Assembly: GCA_965205025.1 (NCBI GenBank)
Contig: CBDBFU010000015.1
Coordinates: 320,001 to 384,000 of the forward strand
DNA: 64,000 bases
Direction: 5' to 3'
Source of the DNA: Candidatus Poribacteria bacterium
Lineage (GTDB): Bacteria > Poribacteria > WGA-4E > WGA-3G
This document shows, piece by piece, positions 37,454-54,042 of this stretch. The translations under genes were made by a program, and so were the position numbers. Positions within the stretch are counted from its first letter, which is position 1; the number at the start of each line of letters is the position of its first letter. A model generated the notes under the pieces. It worked only from the letters and a program-made list of their open reading frames with translations, was not told the DNA's origin and did not search any database.

Positions 37454-39944
37454 CTACTTAATGATTTTCACATTGATAATTGGACTTTCTTGTACGAATG
37501 GAGTGCCATTGATAACTGCAGTTCCACGGAACTTCACTTGATACGTCTTTGCTTCTAATGTACTAATTGCTTCAAGATCGACTTCAACATCATTCTCATT
37601 CATAGGTATTGTAGCTTCAGGAACGGTAATCCCTTCTGGTATCAGTATAGGAGTAATAGTTACGATATCCGTGAAACTTCCACGACGAACAATACTCATT
37701 GTGAGTGTGGCAGATTTCTTAATGGGATCGACTTGTTCCGCTGTTTCAATATCAGTATTTTCAGTTGGCGAAGGATTTGAGACAGGTACAACCGCTGCAT
37801 CTCCTTCTACAGCAGCAACAGGTTCATCCGCAGTTTTAGACTTTGGAAACACAATGCTAAAACGTAAGGGTTCGATTGTAACTATAAATGGTGCTTCAAG
37901 GACAGTTAGTGGTATAGCCGGTGTGGCTTCAGTATAATTTTCACGGTTTATATTTGCTGACCCTGTCACAGAAATATAACTTGTACCTGGAGTAGGAACT
38001 ACAGAAAACTGTTCTCGGCGTTCAACTGTTCCAGCTCGAAGAGAAATCATAGTACTATTTTTTCCTGCCGAGATAGTGGCTTTTCCACCAGATACCCTTA
38101 CTGGAATACCTGCCACATTTAATGCAATCGCATCATTAAACCCTTCCCTGCGATGTGCAATTACATGGAAATTTGTCGTTTTATTATGAACAACATTTAT
38201 ATCAATATCTGCTACTTCAAGTGTGAAAGGAGGTGCTTCCATCACCGTCAACAAAATCTCTTTTGGAGTTGCTGCAACTTCTATGCGACGACCACCGATT
38301 GAACCAACCCCTACAATAGAAAAAGTATGTAGACCTAAATCTGCATCGTCAGGAGCAGTTATAGTTAACATCGCTTGATTCTGTGTAGGATATAAGATTG
38401 TTGGACTTACAATAAAACCTTTCGGTAGATCGGGTGAATAAAACTTGAGTCCACCCTTGAATCCATCTATCCGAGCTGTTGAAACGGTCATGACAAATGT
38501 ACCACCACGTGAAATACGTGGGTTATCTGTACTCACATTAACCTGAAACCGCGGATTTAAAGGTCGTATCGTAAGTCTATATGGATAGTCTCCACCCCCA
38601 CTGTTATTCAGGTCACGAACAGAAATACCATAATCACCTGCATCTGGAGCAGAAAATCCGATAATTGCATCTGTTCCACTGGCGTCATCATTTACACTGA
38701 TGACTTGTTCTTCAATATCCTCTTCAGATTCACCTTTTTTATGTGAGTATATCGTTAATAAAGGATCTAACTGTGATCGAAATTGCCTGGATTGTACTTC
38801 GATTACGAAGGTTGCGCCTTTTTCCACTGTGATAGAATATCTGTCAACATCCCCGGCTTTTTCTATTTTCCCATTCACTGTTATTGGTGTACCTATTTTG
38901 GTCTCTTCTTTTAATGTATTATTGGGTTCAGTTTCATTCGTCTCGTTAAACTCACCAATAGCAAAAGGGTAAGGGTTCGTCTCTAATCCTTTTTCAGTAT
39001 TAACACGTAATTCCTGAATTCCAGTTGAGGCATCTGGAGATATATTAAGTTGTAACGTATTAAGAGATCCTAAGTTTGCCCCAGCGACAGTAACATTGTT
39101 TGCAGCACCGCGTTTACCTCCGAGAGGGAAAACACTCTGTAGATATGGCAACTCTCCAATGCTTAATCTATATCTGTGATTTCCACCGCCTTGATATCGA
39201 ACATCCCGTAAATATAGTGTGTATTCACCATCAGTCTGTGTTGTGTAATCAATAAAGGAGTCTAAGCCATTTCCATCTTGACTCTTGACAATTTCATTTC
39301 CTGCTGGGTCATATAATTCAATATAGGAATCTAATGCTGATCCCATACGTTGGGCATTAATATCACAGATTAAACGTGCACCTTTTCTGAGATTAAATCG
39401 AAAATAATCCACATCTTCTATAGAGTTAACAGTACCATTGACGGTGACAGGTAATGTTAACACATTCGCTGCATCCATCATACCATTCGGTTCCTGTTCC
39501 ATCATCTCAGGTAAATCACCGACAATAAAATTTTGTGCATTGGAAACACCGTTAGGTGTTATTAACCGTATTTGATGGTTACCTAATGGAGCATCTTCTG
39601 ATATTTCAAATGACAGAACCAGGCGTGGATTTGTCGGTACATCACCAGAGATGCCAGAACCATTAAAACCTAACTGATGCAGACGGAGCTTTGTGCTTAA
39701 TAGTTGCCGTTATACCCTGATTGTTAAACCATATCTCTGCCTTCTCATTAATATTCTTCCCTTCAAGAGTAATATCAATTGTTTGTCCGCGTTGCGCAGC
39801 ACGGGGTGTGATATTTGTCAACTGCGGGGCAACCTGTGCATGTGTGATACCTGCAGCCAAAAAGAGAATCAGGACTATCTGGAAAAGTGATTGCAGTTGT
39901 TTGTGTCCTGTTTTTGCTTTCATACAAAGTGATATATCAGGCAT
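37454..39944 (-). pseudogene. planctomycete-type secreted PPC/Ig-domain protein, split by +1 frameshift at 39663-39668
   Basis: The signal-peptide ORF ends AGG TTT TAA; the +1 frame continues NGSGISGDVPTNPRLVLSFEISEDAPLGNHQIRLITPNGVSNAQNFIVGDLPEMMEQEPN into ORF 37454-39505. Confidence 0.8.
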
Positions 39945-41353: not shown

Positions 41354-42802
41354 TTAAAAGATACCTGTAATCACTTCACCTTTAACCAATTCGCGTGGTT
41401 GGTCTAAATGGTTCATTACGATGGTATGCGGATCAATTCCGAGTGTATGGTATACCGTCGCAAGTATATCACGTGGATGCACTGGGTTTTCAAGAGGTGT
41501 TGAACCAGTAGCATCGGATTTACCGTATACCTGACCACCTTTGACACCAGCACCAGCGATAAGACCAGTATAGCAATACGGCCAATGATCACGTCCATCA
41601 GGGGCATTACCGTTCCCTGAAGTACTGATACCCATACGAGGTGAACGTCCAAATTCACCAATTGCGAGAACAAGTGTGCTCTCTAACAATCCCCGTTGAT
41701 CTAAATCTTCAAGTAGTGAAGAAACTGCACTGTCTAACTTCGGACAGTGAAGATTTTTCAATGGTCCAAAGTTTGCTGCGTGGGTATCCCATGCAGTAGT
41801 ATTTGGATTACCGTTAGCAACTGATGGCCAGTTCACCTGTACAAAACGAGTGCCAGCTTCTACCAAACGTCGTGCCATGAGTGCACTCTGACCGAATGTA
41901 TGACGACCATACTTATCGCGCATATCATCTGATTCTTGTGTTAAATCAAAGGCATTTCGTGCCTTCTGAGATAAAATCAGATCGTACGCTTTTTCATAAT
42001 ACTCATTCAATGCGAAGGAATCGGCTACCTTGTCAATTTCTGGCATATTAGCGTTAATCGTTTCAAGGAGTGTTTTCCGACGTTGTAAACGCATCGGTGG
42101 CACTTCTGGACGGAGTGACAGATCGTCAAGATTGATCTCTGTGTTCGGATCTTGGAAGAGGAAGTATGGATCATAGGCTCTACCAAGGAAACCAGCATTA
42201 CCACCCTTACCAATGATACCACTTTCTTGCATTGGTCGTGGAAGTTGAACAGCAGCCAACATCGGTTCTTCTGGTGGCTTAAACTTAGAAATATGTGCTG
42301 CAGCATTTGGATGATCAATTGGAGACGGTGGATCAAGTTGTCCAGAAGGAGCAACTTTATCTGGTGTTTCACCTGTTACCATTTGATACATAGCAGCCGT
42401 ATGATTAAATAAACCTGCAGGTGTATAACTTACTGAGCGAATCAGACAGGCTTTATCCATCTGCTGTGCCAATTTCGGCATCGTTTCTGACAACTGAATG
42501 CCAGGTACGTTTGTTGGAATAGGATTAAACTCACCTCGGATATTTGATGGTGCATCCGGTTTTGGATCCCAAATATCTATGTGACTGGGACCGCCTTGCA
42601 AAAATAACAGAATGACAGAATTTGCTTTGCCCCAACCGTTTAGAGGCTTCGCGGCATCAACTGTCGTACTTGCCTTTGCTTGGAGTGACAATACTTGTGG
42701 CAAACTTATGCCCAGCATCGCGGCGCCACCCACGCGGAAAAACTCTCTACGTGAGAACCCGTCACATAATCTCCCGGGCGCTTGTGGTAACGATAACATC
42801 AA
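41354..42802 (-). CDS. DUF1501 domain protein
   Basis: Tat-like SRREFF, LQGGPSHIDIWDPKP, ARRLVEAG, WDTH, GEFGRSP, GRDHW. Confidence 0.92.
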   Translation of the reverse strand: MMLSLPQAPGRLCDGFSRREFFRVGGAAMLGISLPQVLSLQAKASTTVDAAKPLNGWGKANSVILLFLQGGPSHIDIWDPKPDAPSNIRGEFNPIPTNVPGIQLSETMPKLAQQMDKACLIRSVSYTPAGLFNHTAAMYQMVTGETPDKVAPSGQLDPPSPIDHPNAAAHISKFKPPEEPMLAAVQLPRPMQESGIIGKGGNAGFLGRAYDPYFLFQDPNTEINLDDLSLRPEVPPMRLQRRKTLLETINANMPEIDKVADSFALNEYYEKAYDLILSQKARNAFDLTQESDDMRDKYGRHTFGQSALMARRLVEAGTRFVQVNWPSVANGNPNTTAWDTHAANFGPLKNLHCPKLDSAVSSLLEDLDQRGLLESTLVLAIGEFGRSPRMGISTSGNGNAPDGRDHWPYCYTGLIAGAGVKGGQVYGKSDATGSTPLENPVHPRDILATVYHTLGIDPHTIVMNHLDQPRELVKGEVITGIF

Positions 42803-42862: not shown

Positions 42863-45349
42863 TTAACGGTTGAATAGAAATGCGGGACTGTTGAGTAATG
42901 CCCACATCAGATCTTGCGCACCTTCCTCTTTTGATTCGGCTTTTGCAAGAAATTCTACCGCTGTCGCATATTCAGTTTTCTGTGGTAACCGGGCAAATGT
43001 TGCAAGATACAACTCCTCAACCAAAGTACGATCATCTTTTTTGTCTTTGATGAGTTGTGCAATTCGTCCATTTGGATCAATAATTGCATCCGCAACAGTC
43101 GGACCGTTAATTAGGTTCATGGCGTGTGCTAAACTAACTTCAGTTGTCCGTTCACATTCACACGAACTTTCCCGTTCAGGACGACCAAACAATTTTAGAA
43201 AACCGTCATCCTTAACTTGACTGTCCGGTAATTGTACTGCACGAAAACTTTTCGGCACACCTTGAAACTTAGGTTGACTTCCAGTAGCAACACCAATCGC
43301 ATCCAACAATTGTTCTGCTGTCAAACGACGGGCAGTTGCGTGTGAGAAATTAATACTATCAGATTTATTCCACTTATTCGTTTTAATACTCTGTTGATAT
43401 GTGCGAGATTTGGCAATAGTCTTCATGATATGTCTAATATCAAAACTATTTTCCACGAAATCTTTGGTTAAGGCATCAAGTAATTCAGGATTGCTGGGTG
43501 GATTACTCGTACGGATATCATCCACAGGTTCAATAATACCGCGTCCCATGAAATAACTCCATATACGATTTACACCTGCTTTAGCGAACATTGGATTTTC
43601 TGCAGATGTTAACCATTCAGCAAATGATTCACGCCTATCCTGAGCTTCCTCTTTGATTTCTCCGAATGGTACTGAGGCTTCAACAACTGCTAATGTCCTT
43701 GGGTGTTTGACTGGTGTCGGATTGAAACTTGTATATACAATCTCTTCACCAGGTAATCGGCCATTTTTCAATTGGACATCGGCAAAAAACGCACCCAATT
43801 CGTAGTATTGATTTTGTGTCCATACTTCAAATGGATGGTCATGACATTTATTACATGAGAATCGTACACCAAGGAATAACTGTGTTGTGTTTTCCACTGC
43901 AGCCGTATATTCACGGGACACACGGAAATAACTTGCAGCAGGATTGGAATATGCGCTACCGGTTGCGGTAATCAAGTCATATACAAACTCGTTATATGGA
44001 CGATTTTCAGTAATTTCGTCATGTAACCACTGTTGGAATAACCACATTCCGCGTTCACCGAGGAACTTACGGTTTGACTGTAAAAGGTCTCCCCATTTAT
44101 GTGTCCAATGGTCAACATATTCTGTTGTTTCTACCAATGAATCAATAAGTTTTTCCCGCTTATTCTTAGATGCGGTTGTATCCATCAAGAAATTACGTAC
44201 CTGTTCAGGAGTAGGTGGGAGTCCTGTCATATCAAAATAGATACGACGTACAAATTCTTCATCCGTACAAAGTTCAGCAGGTAAGATTTTTAGTCGTTTC
44301 AGTTTGTTGTGAACATGTGTATCAATATAGTTATACACAGATGTTTCTGCCCACTCGAAACCACTTCTATCTCCCATTACGATAATACCATTTGTACTGT
44401 ATGCACCTTCATAACGGGTTAATATGGCAGTCTCACCTCTACGTTCAGCTGTTACAACACCATCGTCTGTCACTTTAGCAACATCATTTAAACTACTGGT
44501 GAACTTTGCTTCACGGGTCACATCACGGGTCGAACCATCAGCATAGTGTGCGATTACCAACATCTGTTGTTTGTATCCTGGCATTGATAGTTCAGCTGAA
44601 TCAGGTATAACCTCTAACCTTTCAACACGTTTTGTTTTTCCTACATCGGAAACCACCCCTTCACTTATCCACTGGTGGATGAGTTTATAATCACGTGAAT
44701 CAGGTTTAATTACCTGACCCCCTTTATGTGGCACCTCTGATGTCGGCTTGAGTAACATTAAACTCTGTTCAGGGAATGCACGGTTAAATCTTCTTCCTGT
44801 AATGTCTTCAATGAGTAGTTCATAATCGAAATCCGGATCATATCCACGAAGAGATAGTTTAAATCCGTTTTTACCTTTTGCAGAACCATGACAGGTACCG
44901 TTGTTACAACCTGCATGACTCAAAACCGGCATAACATCGCGTACAAAACTCACCGGCGATGCATCAATACTCTTGACTGTTACAGGCAATTCGGTGGTAA
45001 TATTCTTCACCGAGACGGTAATACTGGATGAACCTACTTCTTCTGGAAAGATATAACCATCTTCATGGATCTTAATGCCAGTAGAAGGTTTTAGTTCTGC
45101 CCATGTCGTCACATCAACCCAATTACCATCTTTTGTTTGACCGGATACAAGAATCCGGCGTCCATCTCGTGCATGTTCTAACGTTAATGATTCTGGATGA
45201 ACCTTCAATGCTGTTATTTCTGGTACATCTACACTTTGAACATTCTCCTCCATCTGAGTGATGCCTACGTTAGCATTTATCAAACAAAAAAAGAACACAA
45301 CAAGTAGTGTAGTTGCCAAATTATAACTGAGTTTCACATTAACCTCCAA
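42863..45349 (-). CDS. DUF1549/DUF1553 protein with Ig-like domains
   Basis: CNNGTCHG, KLSLRGYD, CNKCHDHP, NRIW..FMGRG, CECER, LMWALLNS.AFLFNR. Confidence 0.9.
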   Translation of the reverse strand: MEVNVKLSYNLATTLLVVFFFCLINANVGITQMEENVQSVDVPEITALKVHPESLTLEHARDGRRILVSGQTKDGNWVDVTTWAELKPSTGIKIHEDGYIFPEEVGSSSITVSVKNITTELPVTVKSIDASPVSFVRDVMPVLSHAGCNNGTCHGSAKGKNGFKLSLRGYDPDFDYELLIEDITGRRFNRAFPEQSLMLLKPTSEVPHKGGQVIKPDSRDYKLIHQWISEGVVSDVGKTKRVERLEVIPDSAELSMPGYKQQMLVIAHYADGSTRDVTREAKFTSSLNDVAKVTDDGVVTAERRGETAILTRYEGAYSTNGIIVMGDRSGFEWAETSVYNYIDTHVHNKLKRLKILPAELCTDEEFVRRIYFDMTGLPPTPEQVRNFLMDTTASKNKREKLIDSLVETTEYVDHWTHKWGDLLQSNRKFLGERGMWLFQQWLHDEITENRPYNEFVYDLITATGSAYSNPAASYFRVSREYTAAVENTTQLFLGVRFSCNKCHDHPFEVWTQNQYYELGAFFADVQLKNGRLPGEEIVYTSFNPTPVKHPRTLAVVEASVPFGEIKEEAQDRRESFAEWLTSAENPMFAKAGVNRIWSYFMGRGIIEPVDDIRTSNPPSNPELLDALTKDFVENSFDIRHIMKTIAKSRTYQQSIKTNKWNKSDSINFSHATARRLTAEQLLDAIGVATGSQPKFQGVPKSFRAVQLPDSQVKDDGFLKLFGRPERESSCECERTTEVSLAHAMNLINGPTVADAIIDPNGRIAQLIKDKKDDRTLVEELYLATFARLPQKTEYATAVEFLAKAESKEEGAQDLMWALLNSPAFLFNR

Positions 45350-46561: not shown

Positions 46562-48014
46562 CTACATTGGACCGACTCGTTCGGGACCTTTATCCATAGC
46601 AAACATAGAGGTATCAAAACTTCTTTTTAACAAATCTAATTTCGTGCCTTGCATTTCTTGCACATGCCACAAGTTGTTAAATTCATGAGGATCATCAATT
46701 AAATCGTATAGTTCACCTTCTTCATGTCCATGATATGTTACTATCTTATAACGTTTATCCCTAAACATAGTTGCGAAGGAATGGTTCCGCATCCCGAGTG
46801 CATCATAAAACTCACACCGAACAGATGATCGATGTTGATCCGGATCTACTTCCCCTTGAAGGATAGGTAATAATGACCGACCATGCATTTCTGTTGGAAC
46901 TGGTAAGCCAACTAATTCTAATATTGTCGGAACCTTATCTACAAGTTCTACCAAAGCATCACTTTTTAATCCACTTTCGAAACGCGTTGGACACGAAAAA
47001 ATCAACGGCACACGCACTAACCCTTCATAGAATCGACATCCTTTTTGAATTAGTCCATGGTCACCAAGCATCTCGCCATGATCACTTGTAAATATGATAA
47101 CAGTGTTTTCACGTTCTCCCGTTTCATTCAAGACATCTAATATCCTACCCATCTGGTCATCAATTAGTTTTATCATTGCATAGTATGCAGCAATTAATGT
47201 CTTTGCATCTCTTGCTCCAACCGTTTGATCAGGTTTTCTATTCGGTGAGTGGGGTAGTATAGGACTTCGAATATCCAATTCATCTGGTGTTCGGACTTTC
47301 GACTGAAAATCTATATCTGTTAACTTACGTTGTTGTTCTAAATCACTCTCCTTAAAAAAGTGGTTCTGGCATATCATCGGGATTAAATTGTTCTCTATAA
47401 AACTGTGGTGGATTAAATGGTGGATGCGGATCATAAATATTGACACTCGCAAGCCACGGTCCTTCACGTTTTTCACGAATAAACTCAATAGTCTTCTCAG
47501 CACACCATGTCGTCTGGTGTAATTCTGTAGGCACACCTTCTGGATTTTGTGTTAATTCACCGAGAATAGCACCTTTTGTACGAACCCAATCCGCATAGTC
47601 ATGACCTATTTTCCAATCATCTCTCGGTGCATGGCTATAGTGCCAATATCTATATCCGTCATTGACCCGTGGTTCAATCCTACGGAATGCACTTGCTAAA
47701 TGTAATTTGCCAATCAAACCACAGTCATATCCATTATCAGCAAGTGTCTTGGTTACAAGTGGATATGTCTCTGGATAAAAGTCGTTGCCATTACCATTAA
47801 CATGTGTCGCACTTGGATACATACCTGTTAAGAAACTTGACCGACTCGGCGTACATATAGGACTTTGACAATACGCGTGTGTAAATGCTACTCCTTCTTC
47901 AACTAAACTATCAATGTTTGGTGTTGAAACATACGGATTGCCAAGAGCGGCTATTGTGTCATAACGCTGTTGATCAGTACATATCCAAAGGATATTTGGC
48001 TTTTCAACAGACAT
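46562..48014 (-). pseudogene. sulfatase, split by +1 frameshift at 47352-47359
   Basis: KPNILWICTDQQR, CTPSR, GKLH, DPHPP in the first ORF; CTT TTT TAA then the +1 frame KESDLEQQ... with TSDHGEMLGDHG and ELYDL. Confidence 0.85.
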
Positions 48015-48035
48015 ATATTTAACTCTCTTGTGGAA

Positions 48036-49634
48036 TTACTTTTTAGTTGCTGTAAATCCAGCTGTTTTTATGACTTTTGTCAATTCTTCAACAGATAAAG
48101 TGTCTTTCCGTACTTTAACGGTAGCAACATCGGGTAGAGAGACTTCAGCACTAATTACATTCTGATTTTTTGTAAGTGCATCCTGCACTTTTGCAACACA
48201 AGCTCCTCACGTCATACCTGATACGGCTAATGTGATATCCATACTTGCAGTTGTCTCTATCGGGACAGACATGAATATATTTAACTGTTGACCGGAAATT
48301 GCATCGAATACACGAACTTTTCCATCAAAACCACCGGCTGCAATTTGATTACCATCAGGACTAAATGCAACTGCGAATACACTCACAGTATCACCGGGCA
48401 ATGTAAGAAGTTTTTTGCCATCAACAACATTATATATACGTACTTCACCTGCAGAACTTCCAGTAGCAAATTTACTCCCGTCTGCAGAGAATGCGACTGT
48501 GTCAATGGATCCACCTTGTGGTTCGTATGCTTTAATCAGATTAAAATCGGTATTTCCAACATCTCTACGGGTTTCACGGAACATCTTATATAGACGTGGA
48601 ACTCGGTCTTCGCCGACACTCATGACCTGATCAGCATTTGGATGCCGTGCTATTGCGTTTATCTCTCCATAACCTTTATTACTTGAATTGACATCGTCTA
48701 CAAACGAACCTGTATCTACCTCAACCAATTTAAGTGCCGTATCTCGACTGCAACTTACAAAATGTGAACCGTCTTTAGAAAATACAGTGCCAAACACCCA
48801 GTCTCCATGGTTATCAAATTTAACGATTTCCTTCTCATCAGCAATAGTTATTACACGGACAGTATTATCAGAACACCCAAAAGCAACCTTACTGGCATCT
48901 GAAGAGATGGAGAGTCCATATATTGTGTCATAGGTTGAACGGATGTTTTTAATGAGTTTATTTGTTTCCGTATCCCACAATTGGACTTCACCAAATTGTG
49001 CTGGAGAACCACCTGCTACACCAATTGTCTTGCCATCCATTGTATAGACTATAGATTGGATTCGTCGGGCATTACCTACTAATCGTGCTTTTACTGCATA
49101 ATTCGTAGTATCATATAGTAAGACTTCACTAACACCTGAAATAGCGAGTGTATTACCATCGGGTGAATAAGCCATCGCAGATACAACTGGGGGTACAGTG
49201 TAACTCGGATAGTTTGTTTCACCGGTATTATCTACTTCTTCAGGGGTATCATCGTTAGCCCCTTCAAGAATCCAACGTTTAAAAAGTGCTACCTCTTCAG
49301 CAGTAAGGGGTTCTTGGTTTTGAGGCATTGCTGGCGGATCACCTGAAATAAGTTCTATTATCAAACTTTCATCTGGTTTTCCAGGAATGATTGCTTCTCC
49401 TGCCATCCCACCACGTTTTAACTCCTCATAAGTAGTAACAATTAGATCAGCATTTGGATCACCAGGATGATGACATCCTTGACAACTTCTTTTTAGAATA
49501 GGAAAAATCTGTTTATGGAAACTTACGGGTTCTTGTTTACCATGATTGTCGGCAAATACAAATGGACTTCCTAAAACAAACAGAAGAAGACATATTGTAA
49601 TTAAAAACTGAACCCTAAATTCTGATGATTTCAT
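48036..49634 (-). CDS. planctomycete cytochrome c + WD40 + HMA fusion, putative selenoprotein (Sec at TGA 48207-48209)
   Basis: CQGCH and WD40 repeats; reading through the TGA gives SGMT-U-GACVAKVQDAL...KTAGFTATKK* (HMA domain), ending 22 nt before the sulfatase ATG; SECIS-like hairpin downstream. Confidence 0.82.
48174..48190 (-). promoter_or_regulatory. putative bacterial SECIS element
   Basis: AAGUGCA-GGA-UGCACUU perfect 7-bp stem starting 17 nt after the UGA, with G in the apical loop. Confidence 0.7.
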
Positions 49635-49718
49635 ATTGTTGAAACTCCCTACCTTCCAGTTCTGGAGACAATTAAAACTGTAATATTCACCATAAGTCGC
49701 TATCTTATATTTTTAATA

Positions 49719-49746
49719 ATTATATCATAATTCGGTAAAAATTCAA
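49719..49746 (-). promoter_or_regulatory. putative sigma70 promoter of the WD40/sulfatase/DUF1501 operon
   Basis: TTGAAT-16 nt-TATAAT with TG extension on the minus strand. Confidence 0.5.
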
Positions 49747-49856
49747 TTAAAACCGTCAGTTTTAAGGTTTTTGGCAACAAATTCTACGTGTAATCAACAA
49801 TCATTGAATGTCATAAGCGAGTGTCCGAAACATCGGTTGCGTCCGACACTACTTCT

Positions 49857-49884
49857 GTAGGAGCGACCTCCTGATCGCTCCTAC
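49857..49884. repeat. GTAG-type REP palindrome
   Basis: GTAGGAGCGA-8 nt-TCGCTCCTAC. Confidence 0.7.
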
Positions 49885-49950
49885 AAGTAAAGTGTCTATA
49901 AATCTAAAGTTTATTATATGTTAGATGTATGAATAATGTGAATGGAAAAA

Positions 49951-50080
49951 GTGTTAATATTTATTGTTCTGAGATGATTACGCTTTCACGGAAACCTTCA
50001 CGGAGCAATTTTACGAAACCTTATTCTATAAGGGTTTAAAATTTAATAACCCTAATTCTCCGTGAATCACATATGTTAAT
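49951..50080. repeat. about 130-bp dispersed repeat, copy A (inverted relative to 55977-56110)
   Basis: ctttcacggaaaccttcacggagca...ccttattctataagggtt...tccgtgaatcacata matches the reverse complement of 55977-56110. Confidence 0.8.
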
Positions 50081-50175
50081 ATTTATATAACTTATATAAA
50101 TGGATGCATCTTTGGTTTCATCTGATACCATTTTTATAGATGTTTATCCCATGAACAGTTGATATAATACGGGAC

Positions 50176-50503
50176 TTGAAATACTGCACAAAACTGAAAG
50201 TTTATAATACATTTAGAATTGGTATTAGGAACATTTTATGTGGTATTATTGTATTTAGTTTCTTTTATGGGTTGTAGCAACACCGATGCAGAGACCATGG
50301 ACACAAGGAATTGTGGACGATCTACACACGCTTGATATAATTATTTTGTATACGTTATCTGAGAGTCGTGAGTATCAAGCTGCTGTAAAGAGGTAGAACT
50401 TGACGATGAGAATGTGAAGGAAGCCGTGCAGCGTTTTTCAAAAAATGATGGAATGTCTTGTTGGAACACCGATCAAAGTTTATACAACCAGAAATATGTT
50501 TAA
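50176..50503 (+). pseudogene. degraded lipoprotein gene remnant
   Basis: Signal-like stretch ...ILCGIIVFSFF/MGCSNTDAETMD broken by frameshifts and stops. Confidence 0.3.
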
Positions 50504-51268: not shown

Positions 51269-52258
51269 ATGGATCGAAACTTCAACATGATCACTATATT
51301 TACCATCTTTCTATTTACACTTATTGTGATAGGATGTCAAACAGATCAATCTGATAAAAGTACAAACTTAAATACAAGTCAAGCAGAAAAACTTAATGTC
51401 GTCGCAACAATCAGTATGATAACTGATATAGTGGAGAATGTGGGTGGTGACAGAATAAAAGTAACCGGTATTATTGGCGAAGGAGTAGACCCACATCTAT
51501 TTAAACCAACAGCAAGAGATACACAACGACTTCAAGATGCGGATATCATTTTTTACAACGGACTGCATCTTGAAGTGAGAATAACCGGGACAGTCCTTGA
51601 TAAAATGAAAGATAAATCCAAAGCAATTGCTGTCACTGATGGCATTGACAGATCACAACTTCGAGCAACTGAGGAATTCATAGGAGGTTATGATCCTCAT
51701 GTATGGCACGATGTGAGAATATGGATGAAAGCAACTGAGACAGTAAGGGATAAATTAGTTGAAGAAGATCCAAAGAATGCAGAATATTATCAAACGAACA
51801 CAAAAGAATATTTGACAAAGTTACAGAATCTACATAACGACCTACTTCGTCTTGTGTCTCACATACCTTTAGAAAAAAGAGTTTTGATAACAACACACGA
51901 CGCATTTGGTTACCTTGGGAAAGCCTACGGTTTTGAAGTACGTGGATTAATTGGAGTGAACACCGAAAATGAGGTGGGTATCGCAGATGTTACTGAGCTT
52001 GCATCCTTTATTATTAATCGCGGAATATCTACGATGTTCGTTGAATCATCCGCTGCACCACATGGTATAAAAGCCGTTCAAGCTGCTGTTCAAGCCAAAG
52101 GTTACAATGTAAAAATCGGTGGCTCTCTATACGCAGATGCAATGGGAACGCCAGGAACATCAGAAGGAACATATTTAGGCATGATGCGTTATAACGTTGA
52201 TCTCATTTCTAATTCACTACAAACCGAATTAGAATTGGCATATTTTGAGAAAGAATAA
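51269..52258 (+). CDS. Mn/Zn/Fe ABC substrate-binding lipoprotein (TroA/MntA-like), stand-alone
   Basis: IGC lipobox, DPHLF, YNGLHLE, DPHVW, THDAFGY. Confidence 0.92.
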   Translation: MDRNFNMITIFTIFLFTLIVIGCQTDQSDKSTNLNTSQAEKLNVVATISMITDIVENVGGDRIKVTGIIGEGVDPHLFKPTARDTQRLQDADIIFYNGLHLEVRITGTVLDKMKDKSKAIAVTDGIDRSQLRATEEFIGGYDPHVWHDVRIWMKATETVRDKLVEEDPKNAEYYQTNTKEYLTKLQNLHNDLLRLVSHIPLEKRVLITTHDAFGYLGKAYGFEVRGLIGVNTENEVGIADVTELASFIINRGISTMFVESSAAPHGIKAVQAAVQAKGYNVKIGGSLYADAMGTPGTSEGTYLGMMRYNVDLISNSLQTELELAYFEKE

Positions 52259-52278
52259 ATAGAATATACGTGATCTTA

Positions 52279-52319
52279 ATCCACCGAATGAAGACATTTC
52301 ATTCGGTGGATATTTTTTT
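52279..52319 (+). terminator. intrinsic terminator
   Basis: ATCCACCGAATGAA/TTCATTCGGTGGAT followed by T7. Confidence 0.88.
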
Positions 52320-52485
52320 GCAACCTTTTTGTATTATCAACGTTTTAGTACGGAAATGTTCGATCCTTTTTAATAAAATATACAAGAAAATTAAATTGGC
52401 ATTCTTACTTAATACAACAGCAATATCCAAATATTCAAGAGAGAACAATCCATATAAATCCAACTGAAAGAATAGGTATAGTAAA

Positions 52486-52551
52486 ATGATTAGTTATCTG
52501 ATGATATTCTTAATTATTAAGAACTTTACTGAAAAACTTGGTAGAAAGTAA
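52486..52551 (+). CDS. candidate 21-aa small protein MISYLMIFLIIKNFTEKLGRK
   Basis: AGGT-containing RBS-like sequence, hydrophobic-then-basic peptide, own terminator 20 nt downstream. Confidence 0.35.
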   Translation: MISYLMIFLIIKNFTEKLGRK

Positions 52552-52571
52552 CATTTCCAAGTTTAACCTTG

Positions 52572-52611
52572 AAAACCCTATCTCCATCCATTGATTGGAG
52601 ATAGGGTTTTT
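52572..52611 (+). terminator. intrinsic terminator (possibly bidirectional)
   Basis: AAAACCCTATCTCCA/TGGAGATAGGGTTTTT. Confidence 0.8.
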
Positions 52612-52732
52612 GTATTACAGATTTGACAGTGTGGTTGGTATTATAAATCTAATTTAATGAGTTGTGCCACATAACTTATTGTTAATCATTCCTTCCACTC
52701 TTCTCTGTCTAATCTGCGATTTAGACAAATTT

Positions 52733-52793
52733 ACTAACAACTAACAACTAATAACTAAAAACCGACAACTGATTGCTGAAAGCAGATAGCTAA
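52733..52793. repeat. degenerate heptamer tandem repeat (ACTAACA-like)
   Basis: actaaca actaaca actaata actaaaa accgaca actgatt gctgaaa gcagata. Confidence 0.6.
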
Positions 52794-52863
52794 TTAACAC
52801 ATTTGCAAATTCCATCCCCATTAGGATATACTTAACACGAAAGACATAGAAGGAATACATCCA

Positions 52864-54042
52864 ATGCGAATCATCTTTTATACAGGTAAAGGCGGAGTAG
52901 GAAAAACAACTATCTCCGCAGCCACAGGTATGAAATTGGCATCACTCGGTTATAAAACAATCGTTATTTCTCTTGACGTAGCACATTCCCTAAGAGACTC
53001 ATTTGATAGTGAAGAAAAACTCATCGCACAATCCAACGAAAAACAGATACAAATTGCAGATAACCTCTGGATACAGGAGATAAACGTACAAGAGGCAATC
53101 GTTGAATACTGGGACGAAGTATATAACTACCTACGTTCACTGCTCAACCGCTCCGGCCTTGAAACCCTCGTAGCTGAAGAAATCGCAGTATTCCCCGGTA
53201 TGGAAGAAATATGTGCTCTCCTCTACATAAACCAATACGTCCGTGAAAACAATTACGATGTCATAATCCTTGACTGCGCACCAACAGGCGAATCCCTACG
53301 GTTTGTTAGTATCCCCACCACCCTTGAATGGTACATGAACCGAATCTTCAAATTAGAACGAAATCTCGCCAAAATCGCCGGTCCACTAATAGAAACCGTC
53401 AGCTCTGTTCCAATACCAAAAGACGCATACTTTCAAAATATACAAACACTATTCGATAAACTTGAAGGAATAGATAAAATACTCACCGATCCAAAAATTA
53501 CAACTGTACGTCTTGTAACAAACCCAGAAAAAATTGTAATCAAAGAAACACAACGAGCTTTTATGTACTTTTGTCTATACGGATTATGTATTGATGCAGT
53601 TATTATAAACCGGATTTTTCCAGATGGTGTTGATCTCGAATTCTTTGAAGTTTGGAAACAAACACAACAACACTATATAGACGAAGCAAATAATTATTTC
53701 TCCGATGTTCCTGTATGGAAAGTAAACCTATTTGGAGACCAAATTATCGGGGAAAACGGTCTACGGAAACTTGGTGATGTACTCTACGCAGATATAGATC
53801 CAGCAGAACGGTTTGCCGACCAAAGTCCATACAAATTTACGAAAACGAATGAGCTGTATCAACTTACTATGCAATTGCCCTTCTTGACGAAAGATGAAGT
53901 AAATCTAACAAAACACGGAGATGAACTCATTGTTACAATCGGTGGGTTTAAACGGCACGTCGCAATTCCACGAAGTTTGGTAGACAGTAAAGTCTCTGGA
54001 GCAAAATTAACAGGGCAGCAACTTGTTATCACATTCAAGTAA
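52864..54042 (+). CDS. ArsA/GET3/TRC40 family ATPase with C-terminal HSP20-like domain
   Basis: GKGGVGKTT, SLDVAHSL, FPGMEE, DCAPTGE, RLVTNPE; single ATPase domain plus beta-sandwich tail. Confidence 0.9.
   Translation: MRIIFYTGKGGVGKTTISAATGMKLASLGYKTIVISLDVAHSLRDSFDSEEKLIAQSNEKQIQIADNLWIQEINVQEAIVEYWDEVYNYLRSLLNRSGLETLVAEEIAVFPGMEEICALLYINQYVRENNYDVIILDCAPTGESLRFVSIPTTLEWYMNRIFKLERNLAKIAGPLIETVSSVPIPKDAYFQNIQTLFDKLEGIDKILTDPKITTVRLVTNPEKIVIKETQRAFMYFCLYGLCIDAVIINRIFPDGVDLEFFEVWKQTQQHYIDEANNYFSDVPVWKVNLFGDQIIGENGLRKLGDVLYADIDPAERFADQSPYKFTKTNELYQLTMQLPFLTKDEVNLTKHGDELIVTIGGFKRHVAIPRSLVDSKVSGAKLTGQQLVITFK

Follow-up and report, generated by a model that had tools for sequence, protein, structure and literature searches.

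We analysed a gene on the minus strand of a 64,000-nucleotide stretch of Candidatus Poribacteria DNA (NCBI GenBank assembly GCA_965205025.1, contig CBDBFU010000015.1, positions 320,001 to 384,000; hereafter the window), which is part of a 5.66-Mb assembly of 33 contigs that is 95% complete. The gene, at positions 48036-49634 of the window, is almost certainly a genuine selenoprotein gene, as judged from its sequence and conservation: a TGA at which gene callers end the protein is predicted to encode selenocysteine (Sec, U) within a C-terminal HMA domain. We consider it highly probable that the complete product is an exported haem c-propeller-HMA(UxxC) selenoprotein, decoded by SelB at a selenocysteine insertion sequence (SECIS) element.

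The in-frame TGA, the tail frame and the predicted SECIS hairpin

An ATG at 49634 opens a 475-residue open reading frame (ORF; translation table 11) that ends ...LAVSGMT-TGA at 48207-48209. As the original prediction had it, this TGA occupies the first cysteine (Cys) position of the HMA loop GMTCxxC, giving the motif GMT-U-GAC. Past the TGA, 56 further sense codons in the same frame (GACVAKVQDALTKNQ...FTATKK) lead to a TAA at 48036-48038, for a read-through product of 532 residues with the TGA as codon 476, and 21 nt separate the TAA from the ATG of the next gene (48014). The claim that this extension completes the HMA domain and closes the gap to the next gene was borne out by the frame and by Pfam, and the hairpin AAGUGCA-GGA-UGCACUU, which had been placed 17 nt downstream, does start at the 17th nucleotide after the UGA. 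The features of the decoding region are as follows.

48036-49634, minus strand: full read-through coding sequence (532 aa plus TAA), haem c-WD40-HMA(UxxC); from the frame translation and from orthologs with the same single in-frame TGA
48207-48209, minus strand: UGA codon 476, predicted Sec; aligned to Cys in Cys-form orthologs
48174-48190, minus strand: predicted SECIS apical hairpin; 7-bp stem, GG in the loop, 23 nt from UGA to loop

The evidence for the TGA itself comes from 115 genomes and not from sequencing reads. We searched 176 genomes of the phylum (E <= 1e-90) and found an ortholog in 133. Exactly one in-frame TGA was present in 112 of these, namely the window's own genome, 109 of the 111 other same-family genomes, and genomes G064 and G027; with this query no ortholog was found in the same-family genomes G016 (95% complete) and G157 (84%). 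Twelve matches ended near residue 462. In three of them (G036, G030 and G088) a linker insert of 15-25 residues is followed by GMT-TGA-GAC, and the other nine end right after the propeller and have no HMA tail. The remaining nine orthologs, all in a sister family, are full length without an internal stop. The orthologs therefore divide into 115 Sec, nine Cys and nine tail-less forms. Direct inspection of the motif covered 37 Sec forms and, of the nine stop-free forms, G032, G066, G085 and G080; these four carry TGC or TGT at the TGA site. The TGA stays at the same codon down to ~50% identity and the frame is always kept, even across the linker insertion. Relatives with TGA or Cys at the exact site and a preserved downstream frame, proposed beforehand as a check on the prediction, were found.

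Among 24 same-genus orthologs, the ratio of nonsynonymous to synonymous substitution (dN/dS) was 0.135 for tail codons 477-532, with a proportion of synonymous differences (pS) of 0.54; for body codons 150-475 the values were 0.06 and 0.64. An untranslated frame would not keep such a selection pattern across 115 genomes and frame-preserving insertions, and by this comparative evidence the tail is a translated coding sequence under purifying selection.

An unrooted tree of the core domain (24 rows) shows the Sec, Cys and tail-less forms interleaved, with G064 (two Sec) sister to G066 (Cys; support 95/93). An ancestral Sec tail with later losses is the more parsimonious history. The Cys forms do not stem from loss of the Sec trait, since selB scored above its cut-off in all ten genomes tested, including five with Cys forms and four with tail-less forms. 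The G064 ortholog (L078:9142-10923; also in L061) has two tandem HMA domains, each with GMT-TGA-GAC, and a third TGA as its true stop; it is predicted to be a double-selenocysteine form.

Sequencing-run contigs bear on the TGA only weakly. Run X1 shows no differences from the window but is possibly the source sample. Contigs from runs X3 and X4 cover it at ~95% identity, and none of the 40 differences listed (68 more are unlisted) falls at 48207-48209 or within 48157-48224.

The genes for Sec synthesis and insertion, selA to selD, are all present above curated cut-offs: selA (599 bits, cut-off 268); selB (366 bits, cut-off 242), directly beside the tRNA-Sec gene (selC; 78.5 bits, cut-off 47; tRNA-SeC with anticodon tca according to ARAGORN); and selD (364 bits, cut-off 125), which has one in-frame TGA of its own. 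TGA is a normal stop elsewhere, as had been stated for the window. Of the 2206 stop-to-stop frames with 300 or more codons, 384 (17%) end in TGA, RF2 (prfB) was found (507 bits, cut-off 370), and the anticodon tca occurs only in tRNA-Sec among the 41 tRNAs found. Global reassignment of TGA is therefore excluded.

In selD (G000:C4:104148-105074, L019) the motif ...KCAG-U-ASKL is followed by another hairpin, GCUCCGGGUGAGC. This hairpin differs from that of the HMA tail, so the organism would use at least two SECIS designs. On contig C23 of the same genome, a 137-residue ORF (L188:5916-6329, minus strand) matches only the first 35 AhpC/TSA positions before its terminal TGA. Read-through of this TGA would give ...VFYATST-U-TVCQGQL... 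and ~110 additional residues, and the ORF looks like a peroxiredoxin-like selenoprotein shortened by gene calling.

Folding of 60 nt gave AAGUGCA-GGA-UGCACUU as the predicted apical hairpin. The published model of bacterial SECIS elements (PMC13188914, Fig. 2 legend) has a loop of 3-9 nt, an upper stem of 4-16 bp, a distance of 16-37 nt from the UGA and a minimum free energy of <= -7.5 kcal/mol, with G in the first two loop positions following the pattern N1-G-[G/U]-N-N2. The hairpin agrees with this model, the loop being read as GGA (3 nt) or A-GG-A-U (5 nt), the stem having 7 bp and the spacing being 23 nt; the 44-nt region folds at -9.9 kcal/mol.

Conservation of the hairpin, another proposed check, appears as synonymous constraint in the Sec forms and as absence of the GG loop from the Cys forms inspected. 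In the 24 same-genus orthologs, normalised synonymous codon entropy was calculated for 334 windows of seven codons and is lowest at codons 482-488 (K-V-Q-D-A-L-T; 0.074, gene mean 0.627). Eight of the 202 four- or six-fold degenerate columns use a single codon, and four of the eight lie in codons 482-488, where pS (0.064) is ten times below that of the flanks. The Sec forms inspected always have CAG-G.. with a loop of GGA, GGC, GGG or GGU, so the loop-coded residue varies (D, G, A or V) while its codon starts with G every time. The four inspected Cys forms have CAGAAC or CAAACT (N or T) and have lost the GG loop, one of them with a broken stem as well. The stem changes seen are one-sided: in L056 an A-U pair has become G-U, which keeps the pairing, and L029 and L049 lack only the closing A-U pair. 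From this pattern the hairpin at 48174-48190 is, by prediction, the SECIS element of the gene.

The core of the hairpin had been likened to the Escherichia coli fdhF SECIS, and UGCAGG and UGCAC are common to both (K-12 record). The fdhF element, UGA-N12-GGUUGCAGGUCUGCACC, likewise lies inside the coding sequence directly after the UGA. Its GG, however, is at +19/20 whereas here it is at +24/25 (5 nt further), and the loop here is one nucleotide shorter, GGA in most copies as against GGUC; the first hairpin loop of the G064 ortholog is AGGUC, as in the GGUC of fdhF. The comparison covers the apical stem-loop; the fdhF SECIS also has a bulged U and a long lower stem.

Predicted structure and closest known systems

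We predicted the structure of the read-through protein with AlphaFold2 (AF2), using an alignment of 16 read-through orthologs as input (mean predicted local distance difference test [pLDDT] 77; predicted template modelling score 0.64). The protein can be divided into four elements.

49551-49634, minus strand: putative signal peptide, ~aa 1-28 (...SPFVFA/DNHG), read from the sequence alone; AF2 helix 3-22
49323-49484, minus strand: PSCyt1 haem c domain, aa 51-104; Pfam PF07635, 36.7 bits (cut-off 22)
48270-49178, minus strand: seven-bladed WD40 beta-propeller, aa 153-455; Pfam WD40 families (~153-460), AF2 and Foldseek
48039-48245, minus strand: HMA domain, aa 464-532, motif GMT-U-GAC; Pfam PF00403 and AF2

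The N-terminus is hydrophobic in all 16 aligned orthologs. The haem c motif is CQGCH at residues 51-55, and C51, C54, H55, M103 and P104 are invariant in the 16 sequences; M103 (in M103-P104) is the candidate axial Met ligand of the haem. Comparison of the whole model with the Protein Data Bank by Foldseek gave 7bie_A (E 8.8e-27; template modelling score on the target 0.91), and the 50 top-ranked structures listed are generic WD40 propellers only, with no enzyme and no haem c-propeller redox relative among them. Long non-repeat stretches of the propeller are invariant in the 16 orthologs, for example R357 D358 G360 N361 T362 D363 F364 N365 L366 I367, which suggests that the propeller has a specific site rather than being a generic scaffold; D298-L303 is another of its conserved loops.

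The HMA match to PF00403 spans residues 468-527 and profile positions 1-61 of 62 at 39.0 bits (cut-off 24.8); a genome-level profile scan gave 35 bits for the same domain, with one TGA inside. The AF2 model places strands at 464-472, 493-499, 503-509 and 528-531 and helices at 477-488 and 515-524, that is, a beta-alpha-beta-beta-alpha-beta HMA fold over residues 464-531, with residue 476 between beta-1 and alpha-1; block means of pLDDT are ~69-90 across residues 451-532. The read-through protein is thus predicted to be exported, with a signal peptide, a His/Met-type haem c, a propeller and an HMA(UxxC) arm on a short linker.

The original prediction held the protein to be likely unannotated. 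All 120 of the best database relatives end at the TGA; they are 440-494 residues long, cover 81-89% of the read-through protein and are named 'hypothetical protein' or 'WD40 repeat protein'. That Sec-containing HMA proteins had been predicted before, as was also stated, agrees with the NCBIfam families and with the table of selenoprotein families in PMC13188914. This table includes a UxxU metal-binding selenoprotein (NF041115) and a cation-transporting P-type ATPase (E1-E2, TIGR01525) with UxxC, which like the tail has its Sec in the UxxC of a metal-handling protein. NCBIfam also has NF045683, a MerT/CopZ fusion-like heavy metal transport selenoprotein.

The protein is a member of none of these Sec-HMA families, because its scores lie below their cut-offs and its motif and architecture differ. 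In the TIGR01525 ATPase the UxxC lies in the N-terminal HMA domain. That protein is a membrane pump with cytoplasmic domains, whereas here the Sec-HMA domain forms the C-terminus of a haem c-WD40 protein that is predicted to be exported, and the genome's CopA-like ATPase keeps Cys. NF041115 likewise has Sec in the metal loop of a small domain of HMA type and is among the best NCBIfam matches of the tail, which scores 34.7 bits; two small paralogs (see below) score 49.1 and 46.8 bits. All three scores are below the 95-bit cut-off, however, and the protein here has UxxC with one Sec, fused to a 460-residue haem c-propeller body; the second motif position is TGT or TGC (Cys) in all 24 same-genus orthologs, unlike UxxU. 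MerP (TIGR02052) and NF045683 share with the tail an HMA domain that is extracytoplasmic or associated with transport and has a loop of the GMTCxxC type; MerP is periplasmic, as the tail is predicted to be. The tail scores 32.8 bits for MerP (cut-off 92.55) and 34.5 and 35.1 bits for the CopZ families NF033795 and NF047957 (cut-offs 91 and 85), all outside membership, and NF045683 (MerT_CopZ_Se) matched the small paralogs only (40.6 and 28.9 bits, cut-off 375). No mer genes lie near the tail gene; merA and merT were not searched for genome-wide.

The literature that we consulted describes no WD40- or haem c-linked HMA selenoprotein and no such selenoprotein of Poribacteria, although supplements and BSepDB may list one. 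The text of the 2026 review PMC13188914 gave no match for 'WD40' or 'propeller', the NCBIfam models that were matched do not cover such an architecture, and the main texts of PMC13326102 and PMC12013277 gave no term matches, with the reservation that their supplements could list the protein. Sec in HMA domains is thus already known; the architecture, its spread across the phylum and the split between exported Sec and cytoplasmic Cys domains appear to be new.

Related modules and gene neighbourhood

The 13-nt core GTGCAGGNTGCAC occurs three times, counting both strands, in the 5.66-Mb genome, and every copy starts 21 nt downstream of the T in a G-M-T-TGA-x-x-TGY motif. Our own base-composition arithmetic, which is not a tool result, gives an expectation of ~0.2 copies; with three found, each at GMT-TGA, the module is more than a chance occurrence. 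Another contig carries the remaining two copies, 456 nt from each other, in adjacent small HMA genes.

G000:C23:110639-111019 (L073:240-620): small lipoprotein-like HMA protein, 126 aa; in-frame TGA in GMT-U-xx-C, GUGCAGGAUGCAC hairpin
G000:C23:111128-111490 (L073:729-1091): small lipoprotein-like HMA protein, 120 aa; in-frame TGA in GMT-U-xx-C, GUGCAGGAUGCAC hairpin
48171-48220 of the window, minus strand: 50-nt block with GMT-UGA-xxC and the predicted SECIS; matched by many metagenome contigs with unlike flanks on both sides

The small proteins, with motifs GMTUGSC and GMTUGNC, are very likely further unannotated selenoproteins. Their NCBIfam MerP, CopZ and UxxU matches are all below the cut-offs, and no metal genes are present in their neighbourhood. 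The genome has four HMA domains in all. The three that are predicted to be exported all have a TGA; the fourth, at the N-terminus of a 742-residue CopA-like P1B ATPase (CPC, DKTGT), has the Cys form GMHCENC (G000:C13:265620-265805, minus strand).

A pattern scan of one genome per species (185,579 species) matched at least 106 stretches. The 80 loci listed comprise 72 titled Poribacteria, five titled 'uncultured bacterium', two Akkermansiaceae and one Planctomycetota. Of the 101 matches in them, 42 are WD40 fusions and 58 are small HMA proteins; the last, L153, is unclassed but also a small protein. In the metagenome-assembled genomes of Akkermansiaceae (L100 and L153) and Planctomycetota (L121), small lipoprotein-like HMA proteins carry GMT-TGA-xx-C and the hairpin GUGCAGGCUGCAC. 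These hits indicate that the Sec-HMA/SECIS module is common to phyla of the Planctomycetes-Verrucomicrobia-Chlamydiae (PVC) type.

We tentatively suggest, as an idea that may well prove wrong, a compartment rule for Poribacteria, some Verrucomicrobiota and Planctomycetota: every exported HMA domain would use Sec by way of a portable coding/SECIS cassette, 'GMT-UGA-xxC + GUGCAGGNUGCAC', moved between small lipoproteins and the haem c-WD40 protein and once present in tandem with two Sec, and the cytoplasmic CopA HMA domain would use Cys.

The genes downstream of the selenoprotein gene in the window are as follows.

46562-48014, minus strand: sulfatase in two overlapping frames; directly downstream, and separating the selenoprotein gene from its partner genes in part of the family
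42863-45349, minus strand: PSCyt2/PSD1 (DUF1549/DUF1553) protein; conserved downstream neighbour
41354-42802, minus strand: DUF1501 protein; conserved downstream neighbour
37454-39505, minus strand: PPC-domain protein; last gene of the recurring cluster, downstream in L076, L077, L080 and L081

The PSCyt2/PSD1 and DUF1501 genes lie downstream in six of eight fetched loci (three families, including a Cys form and the double-Sec form); the two loci without this arrangement are from one same-genus genome and one tail-less form. With planctomycete-type PSCyt1/PSCyt2-PSD1/DUF1501 sets the protein shares its N-terminal PSCyt1 haem c domain and the place of its gene upstream of PSCyt2/PSD1 and DUF1501 genes, but here PSCyt1 is on a separate WD40 protein with a Sec-HMA tail, and the set gives no mechanism. 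The sulfatase parts correspond to Pfam Sulfatase positions 1-191 (47352-48014) and to positions 178-300 plus SGSH_C (46562-47536). Both parts are contiguous in one frame in L075 and L081, and the copy here is thus frameshifted, either as a pseudogene or through an assembly error.

Upstream of the gene, ~700 nt of AT-rich sequence (49635-50340) contain no ORF of at least 40 residues on either strand and include a 10-bp GC-rich inverted repeat, GTAGGAGCGA...TCGCTCCTAC, at ~49856-49883; an Rfam search of 49600-50500 gave nothing meaningful. Beyond this gap, diverging on the plus strand within 51269-54042, are genes for a ZnuA-type metal-binding protein (51269-52258) and an ArsA/Get3-type ATPase (52864-54042). 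A link of these two to the HMA protein was considered and is not supported, neither gene being near the ortholog in any of eight related loci.

Decoding, function and alternative readings

The events at the gene can be pictured as follows. A ribosome at UGA-476 would meet the SECIS hairpin 17-33 nt downstream, where SelB with Sec-tRNA(Sec) would bind the GG loop and insert Sec. Translation would then go on for 56 codons and complete the C-terminal HMA domain with the loop GMT-U-GA-C. Outside the cytoplasm, the selenolate/thiolate pair may bind a soft metal, Cu(I) or Hg(II)-like, and this oxidising compartment may favour Sec over Cys, since Sec remains deprotonated and its re-reduction is easier than that of Cys. 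The HMA arm may serve the haem c-propeller module and the conserved neighbours (PSCyt2/PSD1, DUF1501 and the PPC protein). When Sec-tRNA is scarce, RF2 would terminate at the UGA and give a 475-residue form without the tail, like the natural tail-less orthologs.

A rival reading takes the TGA as a genuine stop or as a mutation that made a pseudogene, and the HMA-like frame as a decaying remnant or a small ORF translated separately. It would fit the gene calls, which end the protein there in 120 of 120 best relatives, and a GTG-started ORF of 50 residues (48036-48188) that lies in the same frame as the tail. The product of this ORF would, however, be without the metal-binding loop, and in 115 genomes the TGA has kept its codon position, even where identity falls to ~50%, and the frame is retained across the linker insertion. 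The dN/dS of the tail and the Cys codon at the site in the four stop-free forms inspected likewise speak against a true stop, which we regard as extremely improbable. Decoding of the UGA by a tRNA other than tRNA-Sec, whether near-cognate Trp or Cys or through a lineage-wide reassignment of TGA, is very improbable too. The inserted residue is not decidable from sequence alone, but TGA ends 17% of long frames in a genome with RF2 whose sole tca-anticodon tRNA is tRNA-Sec, the site is a catalytic or metal-ligand Cys position, and the G-loop that SelB would be expected to recognise is missing from precisely those inspected forms that have Cys in place of the UGA.

The gene would still be a selenoprotein gene if the UxxC worked in redox chemistry (selenenyl-sulfide/selenol, thioredoxin-like), supplied by the haem c domain, instead of binding a metal. 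This main functional rival, which we think unlikely, draws on the redox character of most known bacterial selenoproteins with UxxC or CxxU (PMC13188914), on the protein's own haem c with invariant CxxCH and Met, on the peroxiredoxin-like TGA read-through (YATSTUTVC) of the same genome, and on the lack of a conserved metal-handling neighbour. Set against it, the domain has the HMA fold with a canonical GMTxxxC loop, the families that it matches best (CopZ, MerP, the MerA N-terminus and UxxU) all bind metals, and the known Sec-HMA relatives are filed as metal binders or transporters. We lean towards metal binding as the role of the UxxC. It is also possible, though doubtful, that the UGA acts mainly as a regulated stop, yielding a mix of 475- and 532-residue forms in a ratio set by selenium supply, the switch suggested in the original prediction. 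That SelB and RF2 compete at UGA is well established for bacteria, and RF2 is present here; the nine orthologs that end just after the propeller indicate that the 475-residue core can stand alone, which makes a working short form plausible and nothing more. No regulation is visible in the sequence, however, and the long form looks like the selected product, given the purifying selection on the tail in 115 genomes and the replacement of Sec by Cys in nine lineages, which makes the tail constitutive.

Several observations weigh against our preferred account of a SECIS-decoded, metal-binding Sec-HMA arm. The hairpin alone folds at only -6.4 kcal/mol, and the 76-nt region is no more stable than its shuffles (z -0.37), so the hairpin is supported by conservation and not by folding energy. 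No compensatory double change in the stem was present among the sequences compared, which leaves the structure backed by conservation only, and nucleotide identity among the three paralogous modules could in part reflect common descent of the VQDAL-coding stretch. An Rfam search of 48000-48300 returned nothing meaningful; to our knowledge, bacterial SECIS elements are not usefully modelled in Rfam. The AF2 confidence is low for the haem domain. NCBIfam scores of the tail for CopZ, MerP, the MerA N-terminus and UxxU are alike (32.8-35.1 bits), all below cut-offs, so that the metal cannot be named, and the neighbours in the window and in related loci give no clue to it. No RNA run containing the stretch was among the sequencing runs listed.

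The truncation at the TGA amounts to a phylum-wide annotation error, in which the protein lacks its metal-binding domain in at least 115 species genomes and in the 120 database clusters closest to it, and functional or comparative studies of these sponge symbionts consequently miss the HMA tail. The conserved 50-nt UGA-SECIS block could be used as a probe for hidden selenoproteins in PVC-type bacteria. Among Sec-HMA proteins, the combination of an exported haem c, a propeller and an HMA domain appears to be a new architecture, and the contrast within one genome between three exported Sec domains and one cytoplasmic Cys domain is a natural experiment on Sec-for-Cys exchange at metal sites. A selenoprotein of this kind is consistent with the enrichment of selA and selB in sponge-symbiont genomes reported in PMC5649159. 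If the compartment rule were true, it would depend on selenium supply whether the cell makes its whole extracytoplasmic layer of soft-metal-binding domains, the arm of the haem c-propeller protein among them.

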